From IMG/VR virus record IMGVR_UViG_2541047438_000018, positions 1 to 10,593 of that record: DNA of 10,593 nucleotides; one strand, written 5' to 3'. The DNA comes from a virus. Its lineage: Duplodnaviria > Heunggongvirae > Uroviricota > Caudoviricetes. A program made the position numbers. This document shows positions 3,001 through 6,000 of this stretch, piece after piece (positions within the stretch are counted from its first letter, which is position 1; each line of letters starts with the position of its first letter).

Positions 3001-6000
3001 TGATGCATTTTATTCGATTCACCAATCAGTGGAAAGGTGAGCATCTTGAAGAAGGGAAAAAATTACTTAAGTCAGCTCAGTCACATGAAGCTCAATCTTT
3101 ATTTGAAATTACCCCACAATCAACTCCAGAAGATAAAAAAAATAACTGGTCCAACCCTAATAGAAACAAAAATGAGTGGCGATATACACCTAAGCTGCCT
3201 ACCCCAGTAAAAAAAAGCTCTACTGTACGAATAATCTTCACCAGAGAGAAAGAAGATGTTAAAATTTTATCTAAATATTTCTTTGGACATGAAGATGCTA
3301 GCGCTTCTGATGTGGGGATGCAATGCTTTGATACGGTGATTGAAGAGGTGAAGTGATGTCTGGACAATACATTCCCTATCACTTAAGGCATAATAAGTCT
3401 ATTGATAGAGAGATTTTTCTCGAAAGCCTAAACCTCTTAAGCAAAAGACTAAATATTCAAGAATATACATATATAGGTTTTGGTGGTCCGATGCTTGAAG
3501 ATTTTAGAATCATGCATAATCGTATCGCTCTTTCTGATATGATTTCTCTCGAAGAACAAGAGTCTACTCACATCAGACAAAAATATAATTTGCCTTATAA
3601 TTGTATTGATTGTAAGCTAATATCAGCTCATGACTTTATTCTTGATTATAGTTTTTCTAAACCATCAATAACATGGTTAGACTATGCCTCCCCGAAAAAA
3701 ATACAAACGGATCTAGATGATATACACTTACTAAGTACTAAAGTAAGCTCTTTTGATATTTTGAAGGTCACCTTCCCCATAAATCCTAGTTCTTATTACC
3801 AACGTAGAGTTGGAGAAAGTTTAGATATTTTTAAAGAAGCTTTTATTAATTCATTAAAATCATTGCTTGGGAAAAAGTATCTTGATTTTAATCTTCAGAT
3901 ATCAAATGCAGATCTTTCAGATCGTAAGATTAAAGCTCTTTTAATACGAATTATTACAAACGCTTTTAGATCAGCAATAGAACGTGGTCTTTCAGGACGT
4001 AAGGATAAGATTCAGTATTACCCATTATCCTTAAATCAATATAATGATGGCAGTCATACCATGTTGACAATATCAGGTTTTTTCTCCTCAGAACAAGAAT
4101 ATATAGAGTTATCTAAGGCATGCGACCTTTCTAACTGGCAATTTTATTCAACAAATTGGGAAGACGTGCAAGAAATAGCAATACCAACACTAACAATTAA
4201 AGAAAAGATAAATTTAGATAGTAAACTGCCTGATAAAGAAGCATATCAGGCAGCCGCTGAAGAGTTCTCTTTAAACGAAAATGAACGGGATAACTATTAT
4301 AAATACTATAGGTTATACCCTAACTTCCAAAGAATTATGGTTTAAATATTCGGGCTGTACTCTTTTATTTAATAAATTGTACAGCCCCTTTAATATATAT
4401 TCAGCAACTATTGGTGACACGCTATTTCCTATTTGTCTGAAACTATGCCATTTAGTTACATGAAAGCGAAACCAATCAGGGAAGCCTTGTAATCTAGCAG
4501 CTTCTCTTGGTGTAATCACTCTTGGATGATAAGGGTGGATCGGCCTGACGGCTTGAAAGCTTCCTTTATCTCTAGCGGTTCCCGCCCTTAAAGTCGGGCA
4601 AAAACCATTTGGATCTAATCTTGTAGATCTTGAAATTTTATCAGTTTCCCCAAAAGATAAGGAAGCATAACGCTCTTGGACGATTTTGCTATGTAATGTT
4701 CCGGTACATCCAGATATGATATTATTTTTTAACTTAGCGATCGATTCTGTATCACCAACATTCCGAGGGATCTGCCCCCATAATTTTTCATAAAATCCCC
4801 CTTTTCGATCTTTTTTAATTGTTCGCCAACTCTCAGAGTCTGATTGCCAATTGGCATCGATAATATCTGGTAATCCATACAAAGCATCTTTTACAGTAAC
4901 CGGATCAATCATTTTAGGCATAAATACTTCATCTGAAATATCAAGCTTCAATGATTTTTTTACACCGATAAAAAAATATCTAGTTCGAATAGTTGGAGCA
5001 CCATAATCAGATGCTTTTACCTTGATGGGATCAAGAATATCATAATCACCGCTAACCAAATTAAATGCTTTATTTCTAATGCCAGAATATTTCTCTTGCA
5101 TAATACCTGGAACATTTTCTGCCAAAAAGAATAATGGCTGTAATTCTGATACTAAACGGTAGAAATGCATGTAAAGCTGATTCCTGCTATCATCAGGATT
5201 CCCCTTGCCTATTGAACTAAATCCTTGGCACGGAGGACCGCCAATAATACCATCTATGGGCATATCGTTTTTAAAAAAACCCTTAATTATTTCTGCATTT
5301 AGTAAAGAAACATCTTCTTGGACGTGCAAACTTCTTGGAAAATTAATTGCGTGAGTATTAATAGCATGTTGATCAATTTCAACTGCCATTTTAACATCAA
5401 ATCCAGCACGTGCAGCACCAAGACTTAGACCTCCAACGCCAGAAAACAAATCTATTACATTCATATAGTTGCAACGTCTCTTATTAGTTTCTATGTATTA
5501 TAACACAACTGTTCTTGATGTTTTAACCCCATAAGATAACCTCATAAAGGCTATCCCTTGAAAATACCGGATCGCATAAATTTAATCTTTCAAAACTACT
5601 TGTCTATTAATCGAGCAATTTAAGGTTGTTTTAGTCATGTCGATACCGACATAGTTAACTAAACCCATTTCATCGTCCAACAAATGGGGGTAATACACTT
5701 TGATTTATAGTCGGGTGGGTTTTTCTCTATCTGCCTTTGGTGTTCATGCCCAAGGCAGATAGCCTCAAGCACCCGCAGCAATTCTACTTAACTATCCTTT
5801 TCCCGCAAACCGTTTTTATCCCCAGCGGCAAATCGAATACACCACCAGCGCCACCGCCATCGCAATTCCTACCGTTGTGAATGCTTCAGGCCAGGTCATT
5901 GATTCACCTCCTGCGGCGGTTCTGGTAGCGACATCCAGTGGGTTGCTTGCCTAAGATCATTACCCGGACTAACTGCTATACCTCCGCGCCGGAACGTGCC

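Follow-up and report, generated by a model that had tools for sequence, protein, structure and literature searches.

A conserved 27-codon reading frame in enterobacterial phages probably encodes a translationally coupled, single-helix membrane peptide

Background

The small membrane-protein modulators of bacteria include KdpF (29 aa), AcrZ (49 aa), MgtS (31 aa) and CydX (37 aa), to which may be added YohP (27 aa). The type I toxins TisB (29 aa), DinQ (27 aa) and ShoB (26 aa) are equally short. Among phage-encoded peptides, the E protein of phiX174 and the Sgl peptides of leviviruses have their activity in one transmembrane (TM) helix that binds a host membrane protein.

The 27-codon frame described here was found in the window, a 10,593-nt stretch of Caudoviricetes DNA that was analysed as a whole, and its predicted product resembles KdpF, AcrZ, MgtS, CydX and YohP in length, in its one hydrophobic helix with very short tails, and in a helical face of the small-xxx-small type. 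This frame is very probably a genuine gene rather than a chance ORF, and its product a tiny membrane peptide with a single helix. We consider it likely that it is a genuine conserved phage gene whose product, a 27-residue single-pass inner-membrane micro-protein, is translationally coupled and acts through helix-helix contacts.

The reading frame, its start signals and its product

The small ORF lies on the minus strand, from an ATG at 5899-5897 to a TAA at 5818-5816 (5816..5899 with the stop codon), and its translation as read from the window sequence is MTWPEAFTTVGIAMAVALVVYSICRWG, in which a single TM helix is predicted at residues ~6-24, with W3 and W26 flanking it. A Shine-Dalgarno (SD) sequence, AGGAGGTG (minus strand, 5905..5912), is located 5 nt before the ATG, within the Q-E-V codons that close the upstream gene; the window contains one instance of AGGAGGTG-N5-ATG, compared with 0.01 expected from shuffles. 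The TGA (5898-5896) of this upstream DUF551 gene and the ATG of the small ORF overlap as ATGA (minus strand, 5896..5899). The ORF, the SD sequence and the overlap had all been pointed out in the first-pass annotation, and all are present in the sequence.

The best 19-residue Kyte-Doolittle mean is 2.11 (residues 6-24), which ranks second of the 50 ATG-initiated ORFs of 20-40 aa in the window and exceeds the mean of 1.6 over ~19 or more residues by which a single-pass membrane protein is predicted. The single hydrophobic helix proposed earlier is borne out by this analysis; the basic C-terminus proposed with it is not, as there is just one Arg, in CRWG. W3, P4, A6, G11, A15 and W26 are invariant residues, and the consensus is M-[TSN]-W-P-[ED]-A-F...G11...A15...Y-S-I-C-R-W-G. 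The small residues T8, G11, A15 and S22 lie on one helical face, with a conserved GxxxA motif.

Upstream gene and translational coupling

The upstream gene (minus strand, 5896..6453) encodes a protein of 185 aa with a C-terminal DUF551 domain (residues 115-181; PF04448, 72.5 bits, E=5e-20), its relatives in RefSeq are annotated as DUF551 proteins, and its last four codons carry the ribosome-binding site of the small ORF. In 64 distinct upstream contexts, the stop/start overlap is retained 58 times (54 instances of ATGA and four one-base overlaps) and an SD-like core 63 times, junctions with unrelated sequences included. Because both features are conserved across unrelated upstream genes, the predicted translational coupling of the small ORF to the gene before it is supported.

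The coupling to a DUF551-like gene that was noted at the outset holds in the window but does not extend to the family: a DUF551 domain is missing from five of the nine upstream genes tested, so that the small ORF follows DUF551 and non-DUF551 genes alike, and some DUF551 genes have no small ORF behind them. It is absent at yfdS in CPS-53, the only DUF551 locus of K-12 examined, and phage phi24B possesses a DUF551 gene and no copy of the small ORF; the 23-aa vb_24B_5c annotated in phi24B was rejected as a copy, since it is the 3' end of the DUF551 gene read out of frame. The association with DUF551 is local and not a family trait. The peptide was also rejected as a part of DUF551 (PF04448), as the match extends no further than residue 181 in the upstream protein and lies in a different frame. 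Contig-end fragments of the peptide are labelled 'DUF551 domain-containing protein, partial' by PGAP; given the end and frame of the DUF551 match and the five upstream genes that lack the domain, these labels are misnomers.

Distribution and genomic contexts

The frame is present in 1610 of 5426 complete E. coli genomes (~30%), in up to seven copies per genome, a maximum seen in Shiga-toxin-producing strains. Phage records with the frame number 94, among them 933W, VT1-Sakai and VT2-Sakai, the virulent phages Av-05 and TH18, and the P1-like SJ46; it is full-length in 92 of these, at identities down to 59%, and more than 496 IMG/VR loci possess the ORF. The gene is thus carried by lambdoid prophages, P1-like phage-plasmids and rV5-like virulent phages of Escherichia, Shigella and Salmonella. 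By tblastn, the 27-mer matched 226 plasmids, of which 217 are non-mobilizable and which, among the matches listed, are mostly of ~95-100 kb, and the 24-aa variant of SJ46 gave no match to plasmids. Of the matches to a DNA pattern in genome contigs, four were true loci, in E. coli and S. flexneri, and 17 arose by chance.

Nearly all types have an ORF of 27 codons, the exceptions being SJ46 (24 codons) and a few disrupted copies. In-frame length variants derive from a GCGATG hexanucleotide repeat, and are therefore in frame by construction. The downstream neighbours vary (hok/sok, xis-int, a toxin-antitoxin pair or intrinsic terminators), and similarity between loci breaks immediately after the stop codon. 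With unrelated genes upstream and unrelated contexts downstream, the small ORF constitutes an independent module. Its position is at the end of early accessory clusters, as their last cistron: the nin region here, and the exo-xis/ea region elsewhere. A conservation search in related prophages had been suggested as a check on the frame, and it found frame, length, start and stop kept in related and unrelated phages.

Downstream side: a truncated hok/sok locus

Beyond the stop codon in the window, a spacer with a putative hok promoter (minus strand, 5775..5815; outside the ORF and read from the sequence), whose -10 element TAGAAT is at 5786-5781, precedes the first 58 nt of hok mRNA, which form its 5' stem-loop (minus strand, 5717..5774) and where the 5' part of Rfam RF01794 aligns well. 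The RF01794 match spans 5650-5774, downstream of the small ORF, and its 50.2 bits are under the gathering score of 59. The proposed promoter lies 7 nt upstream of the start of this match; it was not flagged by the promoter scan, and its assignment to hok is therefore putative. The similarity to O157 prophages stops at 5717, and the remainder of hok/mok/sok is replaced by a low-GC island. The small ORF had been placed at the edge of this island, which is nearly correct, but similarity to other prophages continues 99 nt beyond its stop codon and the edge is inside the truncated hok/sok locus. The order is intact in 933W (ORF-sokW-mokW-hokW). A second family of small hydrophobic ORFs, MSDDISLAMEGALAVIAVVGVYCLVVFLMDRLGN, occupies the same position upstream of hok in other prophages.

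Selection on the reading frame

Some collections of homologues were gathered by similarity at the protein level, and conservation then looks higher than it is; because the IMG/VR set was ranked by protein identity, it was kept out of the selection evidence, and a hok-anchored sample was used instead, whose 118 loci were selected on the hok mRNA start downstream and on nothing else, the ORF playing no part in the choice. The ORF is found in 73 of these loci and is intact in ~90% of those. In frame, the variable site-alleles were 24 synonymous, 25 nonsynonymous and two stop, that is, 47% synonymous versus 25% expected (p=4e-4), whereas the corresponding counts in the off-frame controls were 9/29/6 (9 of 44 synonymous) and 7/40/0 (7 of 47). 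By the NG86 method, dN/dS in frame was 0.07-0.86, a measure that is noisy at 27 codons and exceeded 0.5 in several pairs, and pN/pS in the other two frames was around 1 (0.4-4.8). All copies found by blastn alone were open. The disrupted copies of the hok-anchored sample (~8-10%) have W3 changed from TGG to TAG or TGA (three cases), W26 changed to TGA (one) or a 1-nt deletion (two); a meaningful nonsense hotspot at W3 was considered and rejected, since transitions at TGG codons account for the pattern. Lack of conservation and a non-coding pattern of substitution had been named as grounds for abandoning the frame; it is conserved, and its substitutions are coding-like.

Annotation and protein families

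Among the matches listed for a query confined to the ORF (40 records), RefSeq/PGAP has no feature except the overlapping upstream DUF551 gene, and the small ORF is unannotated in all 12 phage records inspected. It had been predicted that default gene callers would miss the ORF, and RefSeq gene calling does lack it. The accompanying description of the ORF as unannotated is correct for these sources but not for GenBank, where the exact peptide appears under such names as 'bacteriophage protein' and 'hypothetical protein FORC28_2400'.

No family in Pfam, PHROGs v4, NCBIfam or PADLOC 2.0 covers the peptide. The best PHROG matches (E=0.0065-0.03, 15-17 bits) are to unrelated unknown families, a glycine-zipper model matched below threshold, and sub-threshold matches to DUF883_C, PTR2, KdpF, phrog_4612 and phrog_38566 were rejected as hydrophobic-helix noise. 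Membership in the KdpF family (TIGR02115) was rejected at 14.7 bits versus a cut-off of 26.85, the context being a phage early operon and not kdpFABC; membership in Hok/Gef was rejected because there is no Pfam match and the Rfam sok/hok match is downstream of the ORF, not over it. The query for protein homologues was a 40-aa translation of the window that included 13 out-of-frame residues. An exhaustive phmmer search against 1.84 billion representative proteins recovered nothing beyond this narrow family: neither remote relatives nor a parent domain turned up. The peptide sequence was not found in a full-text literature search, nor a matching peptide in the supplements of EHEC Ribo-seq studies of uninduced lysogens, the latter being weak evidence because prophage early operons are repressed in those conditions.

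Proposed mode of action

Ribosomes that end translation of the upstream gene would meet the embedded SD sequence and a start codon that overlaps the stop codon, so that translation would be coupled and the peptide would be made whenever the early operon is transcribed, during infection or induction. Insertion into the membrane would be post-translational, because the peptide is too short to leave the ribosome before release. The acidic N-terminus (E/D5) would be outside and R25 inside, with W3 and W26 at the two membrane interfaces, and the face composed of T8, G11, A15 and S22 (GxxxA) may pack against another TM helix. In the manner of the small membrane-protein modulators of bacteria, the peptide would act non-enzymatically, through association with itself or with an inner-membrane protein of the host or the phage. 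The analysis shows that the frame exists and is conserved, that selection on it is of the coding type, that the coupling signals are kept and that the product has the anatomy of a hydrophobic helix; translation, topology, partner binding and timing are what we infer; for topology and partner binding, the guide is sequence rules alone.

A further reading, tentative and on balance doubtful, is that the peptide is the founding member of an unrecognised class of phage TM micro-effectors, which would serve as plug-in terminal cistrons in temperate, plasmid-like and virulent enterobacterial phages and would hit a conserved host inner-membrane machine. Such an effector would, for example, prevent superinfection, inactivate a defence effector located in the membrane, or adjust membrane potential or cell division at an early stage of infection, and the MSDDISLAMEGALAVIAVVGVYCLVVFLMDRLGN family would be its functional analogue.

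Alternative explanations

The peptide might instead kill the host, as a membrane-damaging product of the type I toxin or Kil kind that depolarises or permeabilises the inner membrane upon expression of the early operon; this would be a special case of a real gene, with a different mechanism. Its size and hydrophobicity are like those of TisB, DinQ and ShoB, hok/sok is its immediate downstream neighbour in 42 of 98 loci, and another small hydrophobic ORF family takes the same place in other prophages. The early nonsense and frameshift mutations could reflect counter-selection of a leaky toxin, although the nonsense clustering at W3 is what TGG transition bias would yield. We nevertheless regard host killing as unlikely: no antisense RNA, long structured leader or other type I repression device was found, the strong SD sequence and direct coupling point to free expression, as many as seven intact copies are maintained in one genome, the peptide has no match to Hok/Gef or any other toxin family, and its C-terminal tail is just RWG, with no charged tail of the kind found in Hok, Ldr and TisB-like toxins.

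Conservation of the sequence as DNA or RNA, whether as a linker for recombination where mosaic modules meet, an upstream promoter element for hok, or a terminator or attenuator, is very improbable and is largely refuted. The ORF is located at a mosaic junction, with similarity to neighbours breaking at its ends, it abuts the putative hok promoter in this window, and nucleotide-level conservation is strong over its first 20 nt. However, the same length and frame are kept in contexts without hok (VT1-Sakai, Av-05, SJ46 and ArgO145), start codon, stop position and SD sequence are kept across unrelated junctions, and the excess of third-position, synonymous change is confined to this frame. A conserved RNA structure was rejected because there is no consensus fold and no covariation (consensus -2.8 kcal/mol, zero compensatory pairs, single-sequence z-score -0.72), and no Rfam family covers the small ORF.

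Least probable of all is that the upstream protein acquires the peptide as a C-terminal membrane anchor, through programmed -1 frameshifting or as a fusion, in which case the frame would not be a gene in its own right. In favour of this, the frame stays open over 17 or more codons ahead of the ATG, PGAP gives contig-end fragments a DUF551 name, and true in-frame fusions occur, though rarely (P0097, in which the peptide is joined to an Ead/Ea22-like protein, and P0100). Against it, the upstream genes are mutually unrelated, ATG and SD are kept in nearly all contexts, inspection of CCGCCGCAGGAGGTGAATCAATGA shows no slippery heptamer of the form X XXY YYZ, and the fusions are single clusters among 24 representative phmmer matches.

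Significance and comparison with known systems

If the ORF is a separate gene for a membrane micro-protein, as we consider likely, there is a gap in annotation: a gene of ~30% of complete E. coli genomes and of the reference phages 933W, VT1-Sakai and VT2-Sakai is absent from RefSeq and from the family libraries tested. The accessory genes of the exo-xis/ea and nin regions, which the ORF ends, influence lysogeny and Stx prophage induction. Deleting or cloning a neighbour such as a DUF551-type ea22 may silently remove or uncouple the peptide, and if the micro-effector reading were true, some exo-xis/ea phenotypes of Stx phages could partly belong to it. A natural knock-out is available, in which codon 3 is changed from TGG to TAG and the upstream gene is intact.

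With the exo-xis proteins (orf60a, orf61, orf63, orf73 and Ea22) the peptide shares its neighbourhood and, presumably, the early pL-driven expression class (PMC10834534). Stx2a phage WGPS2 has the ORF coupled through ATGA to an Ead_Ea22+DUF551 gene, an architecture described as Ea22 variant 2 (PMC10834534). Whereas the exo-xis proteins are soluble and of 55-182 aa, the peptide is a predicted TM helix of 27 aa, and text searches of the Ea22 paper did not find it among the exo-xis genes listed (PMC10834534).

Like phiX174 E and levivirus Sgl, the peptide is short, phage-encoded and predicted to have one TM helix, but the phages that carry it already possess holin/endolysin cassettes and have it in early accessory regions, not lysis regions; a PHROG search found no sequence similarity to single-gene lysis peptides or other small phage membrane peptides. 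Like the type I toxins (Hok/Gef, TisB, DinQ and ShoB), it is tiny and hydrophobic, and a hok/sok locus follows it immediately in this window and in many relatives; unlike them, it has no antisense RNA, mok-type leader or charged C-terminal tail, it has a strong SD sequence and predicted coupled translation, and it occurs equally well without hok.

KdpF, AcrZ, MgtS, CydX and YohP are, like the peptide, routinely overlooked by annotation and of a kind for which helix-helix binding is expected. The peptide differs from this group in being phage-borne, in ending early phage operons, and in having no membrane-complex gene adjacent to it. Should a host membrane protein prove to be its partner, the peptide would be a phage-borne addition to the small-membrane-protein regulators of bacteria.

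The small ORF and its translation signals

On the minus strand of the window, the 27-codon ORF runs from an ATG at 5899-5897 to a TAA at 5818-5816 and encodes the peptide MTWPEAFTTVGIAMAVALVVYSICRWG. The first-pass annotation had described a strong Shine-Dalgarno sequence and an ATGA stop-start overlap, and both are present: AGGAGGTG (5912-5905, minus strand) lies 5 bases ahead of the ATG, which has TG in common with the TGA stop of the upstream gene (5896..6453, minus strand), a 185-residue reading frame with a DUF551 domain in its C-terminal two-fifths (PF04448, 72.5 bits, residues 115-181). 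The combination AGGAGGTG-N5-ATG occurs once in the window, versus 0.01 expected. The product is hydrophobic as described, with a best 19-residue Kyte-Doolittle mean of 2.11 that ranks second among the 50 ATG-initiated ORFs of 20-40 residues in the window, but its reported basic C-terminus amounts to one arginine.

Distribution and annotation

The reading frame is conserved in relatives in every collection searched, including by the tblastn comparison that had been proposed as a check. Among 50,697 phage records, tblastn matched 94, at identities from 100% down to 59%, and 92 of these span at least 80% of the peptide. Of 5426 complete E. coli genomes, 1610 have a blastn match to 82 nt confined to the ORF, at 3062 places (163 on plasmids) and at a maximum of seven per genome. 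In plasmids, tblastn found the peptide in 226 records from the genera Escherichia, Salmonella, Klebsiella and Shigella. Of these records, 217 are non-mobilizable, and among the matches listed most are about 95-100 kb. IMG/VR contains more than 496 confirmed copies. In GTDB, searched with a strict pattern and one genome per species, E. coli and S. flexneri are the only species whose representatives have true copies, and 17 further pattern matches were attributed to chance. When 1.84 billion representative proteins were searched exhaustively with phmmer, the 24 hits were all from the same narrow peptide family. Clustering at 90% places the 27-mer together with DUF551 proteins of 121 aa, which lack it.

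No family of Pfam, PHROG, NCBIfam or PADLOC covers the peptide; sub-threshold matches to KdpF (14.7 bits, cut-off 26.85), DUF883_C (14 bits, cut-off 27) and PHROGs (15-17 bits) were rejected as scores that any hydrophobic helix gives. Full-text search of the literature did not find its sequence. Both the exact peptide and numerous variants are in GenBank, named 'bacteriophage protein', 'prophage protein' or 'hypothetical protein', as are N-terminally over-extended calls of 36-57 aa. The expectation that gene callers would miss the ORF is borne out by RefSeq, in which none of the 40 records listed by an ORF-only query has a feature for it. Contig-end fragments of 25-39 aa made of this peptide (P0012, P0029, P0030, P0034, P0037, P0043-P0047) are named 'DUF551 domain-containing protein, partial' by PGAP, the peptide being outside the DUF551 domain. 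In phi24B (L242), the annotated 23-aa vb_24B_5c (2840-2911) was rejected as a relative, since it is the 3' end of the DUF550/DUF551 gene vb_24B_6c read in another frame; vb_24B_4c has an apparently over-long N-terminus in the same overlap.

Genomic contexts and probable translational coupling

The small ORF is annotated in none of the twelve phage records whose contexts were inspected. It is located after L0139 and before hokW in 933W, upstream of xis/int in VT1-Sakai, PhiR12_1, PhiR5_1, PhiR49_2 and the Stx2a phage WGPS2, ahead of a toxin-antitoxin pair in ArgO145, and facing a tail-region gene in the Shigella phage POCJ13; it is also present in the virulent Vequintavirinae genomes Av-05 and TH18 and, as a 24-codon version, in the P1-like phage-plasmid SJ46. 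In WGPS2 an ATGA overlap links it to a gene whose product has Ead_Ea22 and DUF551 domains, the architecture of Ea22 variant 2 in the exo-xis literature (PMC10834534); among the exo-xis genes listed in that source, text search found no such small ORF.

The first-pass annotation had tied the ORF to the DUF551 gene, which indeed adjoins and overlaps it in the window, but the pairing is not a fixed one. A DUF551 domain is lacking from five of the nine upstream genes tested, and the ORF was not found after the DUF551 genes of K-12 CPS-53 (yfdS) and phi24B; it is therefore a module of its own and not a DUF551 appendage. Among 64 distinct 60-nt upstream contexts, drawn from all loci collected, a stop/start overlap with a long upstream frame is present in 58 (54 ATGA and four one-base overlaps) and a Shine-Dalgarno-like core at -18..-4 in 63, signals that support translational coupling. 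The junctions are of several unrelated sequence types, such as ...GGTGAATCAATGA, ...GGAGGATATTTTACGATGA and ...TGAGGTGCGGTAATGA. Downstream, similarity ends at the stop codon, and in at least four contexts an intrinsic-terminator-like hairpin lies no more than about 40 nt past it, so the transcription unit usually ends with the small ORF.

Another family of short hydrophobic reading frames, absent from the window, is found directly upstream of prophage hok/sok, about 35 nt downstream of the small ORF in L171 and L209 of IMG/VR and at the same position in L211 and L136. One form, MSDDISLAMEGALAVIAVVGVYCLVVFLMDRLGN (34 aa), has its own AAGGAGG and is followed by the hairpin CGATATGGGAATTCCCATATCG; a related 29-aa form, MLVLKCALAIAAVMAIYCLAVVLMDRLSD, has a GTG start. 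Neither form matches a PHROG family.

Surroundings in the window

The window is the early region on the pR side of a lambdoid prophage. Its minus strand encodes, in order, an O-like initiator, a DnaC-like loader, a number of small genes, DUF4014, DUF551, the small ORF, NinB/DUF1367 and a Q-like antiterminator. Within the nin region, between the small ORF and NinB, is a block (approximately 1600-5716) of 31-41% G+C per 400-nt window versus about 50%, which encodes a GHKL-type ATPase (HATPase_c_3; 1965-3356, plus strand), a Methyltransf_35 'putative O-methyltransferase' (3353-4345, plus strand) and a C5 cytosine DNA methyltransferase (4313-5464, minus strand). The ATPase and the Methyltransf_35 protein have no PADLOC match. 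Possibly this island is a methylase-linked module, as yet uncharacterised, for defence or restriction. Several STEC and cattle isolates, an O111 strain among them, have the same arrangement at 100% identity, and at least 80% of the low-GC stretch is present in 172 complete genomes.

Similarity to the widespread O157-type prophage extends 99 nt past the stop of the small ORF and ends at 5717. The intervening hok/sok remnant (5717-5815, minus strand) comprises an inferred promoter (-10 TAGAAT, 5786-5781, minus strand) and nucleotides 1-58 of the hok mRNA. The Rfam model RF01794 (sok/hok) aligns with 5774-5650 at 50.2 bits, under its gathering score of 59, with a good fit only over the first ~58 positions, and the mok/hok/sok portion is absent. 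The intact locus of 933W has the upstream gene, then the small ORF, sokW and mokW/hokW. From the end of similarity, the partial fit and the 933W order it follows that the island replaced hok/sok from hok-mRNA position +58, and with it the toxin part of the locus. The small ORF had been placed at the island edge; it is near that edge, but about 100 nt inside the conserved side.

Selection on the reading frame

In pairwise Nei-Gojobori comparisons of eight diverged types, dN/dS in the ORF frame is 0.07-0.86 (most 0.1-0.5), whereas the two other frames give pN/pS values spread around 1 (0.4-4.8). Because the IMG/VR set is ranked by protein identity, it was left out of the selection analysis, and 120 loci were collected independently of the ORF by exact match to the downstream hok mRNA start. 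The small ORF lies within 420 nt in 73 of the 118 loci with enough upstream sequence; about six copies (8-10%) are disrupted, by TGG to TAG or TGA at codon 3 (three), W26 to TGA (one) or a one-base deletion (two). In the 54 copies abutting hok, the variable site-alleles are 24 synonymous, 25 nonsynonymous and two stop, against a neutral expectation of 25% synonymous (binomial p=4e-4), and 28 of the 51 are third-position changes; the same changes read in the other two frames give 9/29/6 and 7/40/0 (synonymous/nonsynonymous/stop). The substitution pattern is thus coding-like, a property whose absence had been named among the grounds for rejecting the ORF.

Six of six copies from the blastn 'spread' list, at 78-92% nucleotide identity, are open, two of them differing by +6 and -6 nt. 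Expansion and contraction of a hexanucleotide repeat, GCGATG (Ala-Met), in the transmembrane helix gives 25- to 35-residue variants (...GIAMAMAMAMAMAVALV...; L092, L094; P0018, P0068, P0071, P0075), so the in-frame state of the +6/-6 copies and of 29-35-aa variants carries no weight. One 42-aa variant has an internal duplication. Independent codon-3 nonsense mutations (TGG to TAG or TGA) occur in POCJ13 (L006, 1201-1284), where the gene that RefSeq places over the disrupted copy is instead an antisense ORF, PI30_gp73, and in three IMG/VR loci.

Nature and possible action of the peptide

Alignment of the eight types shows invariant M1, W3, P4, A6, G11, A15 and W26; position 5 is acidic (E or D) throughout, and R occupies position 25 in all seven types of 27-28 residues but is absent from the 24-residue SJ46 version. 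W3 and W26 are 23 residues apart, as expected if each tryptophan sits at one of the two interfaces of a bilayer. P4, T8, G11, A15 and S22 fall within 20-80 degrees on a helical wheel and thus form one small-residue face with a GxxxA motif. The acidic N-end and the C-end arginine suggest an N-out/C-in topology by the positive-inside rule. A chain of 27 residues is freed before it exits the ribosome tunnel, and proteins of such size are inserted post-translationally.

The small ORF is very probably a real, selected phage gene for a single-pass inner-membrane micro-protein, the translationally coupled terminal cistron of early accessory operons. Expressed through this coupling, the released peptide would insert into the inner membrane N-out/C-in, where its small-residue face may pack on a helix of a host or phage inner-membrane protein or on itself. 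Because that face is conserved, there is no long polar tail, and the peptide occurs in temperate, plasmid-like and virulent phages, we infer from sequence that it may bind a conserved inner-membrane protein, or self-associate, early in infection or induction.

The main rival, a rather unlikely one, is that the peptide is toxin-like and damages the membrane. Its size, how often it adjoins hok/sok and the disruption of 8-10% of copies suit this reading; translation signals that are strong and unregulated, and genomes with as many as seven intact copies, accord poorly with it. A purely DNA or RNA element is highly improbable: RNAalifold gives a consensus fold of -2.8 kcal/mol with zero compensatory pairs, folding of the single sequence has a z-score of -0.72, and the small ORF is covered by no Rfam family, so the RNA explanation was judged unsupported. 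Least probable by a little is a frameshift-joined anchor of the upstream protein, although rare true in-frame fusions, P0097 (143 aa, an Ead/Ea22-like upstream protein ending in the WPDAF...CRWG helix) and P0100 (78 aa), give a weak Rosetta-stone hint that the peptide may be a membrane anchor joined to its neighbour.

As a single-pass micro-protein, the peptide is an unnamed phage/prophage small membrane protein that is not categorically new and whose design holds no surprise. It is widespread, is present in medically relevant Stx phages, is cleanly testable and is possibly a confounder of exo-xis genetics. In mode of action it may resemble small membrane-protein modulators such as KdpF, AcrZ, MgtS and CydX, being a member of none of these, and less probably the type I toxins, to which it does not belong either.
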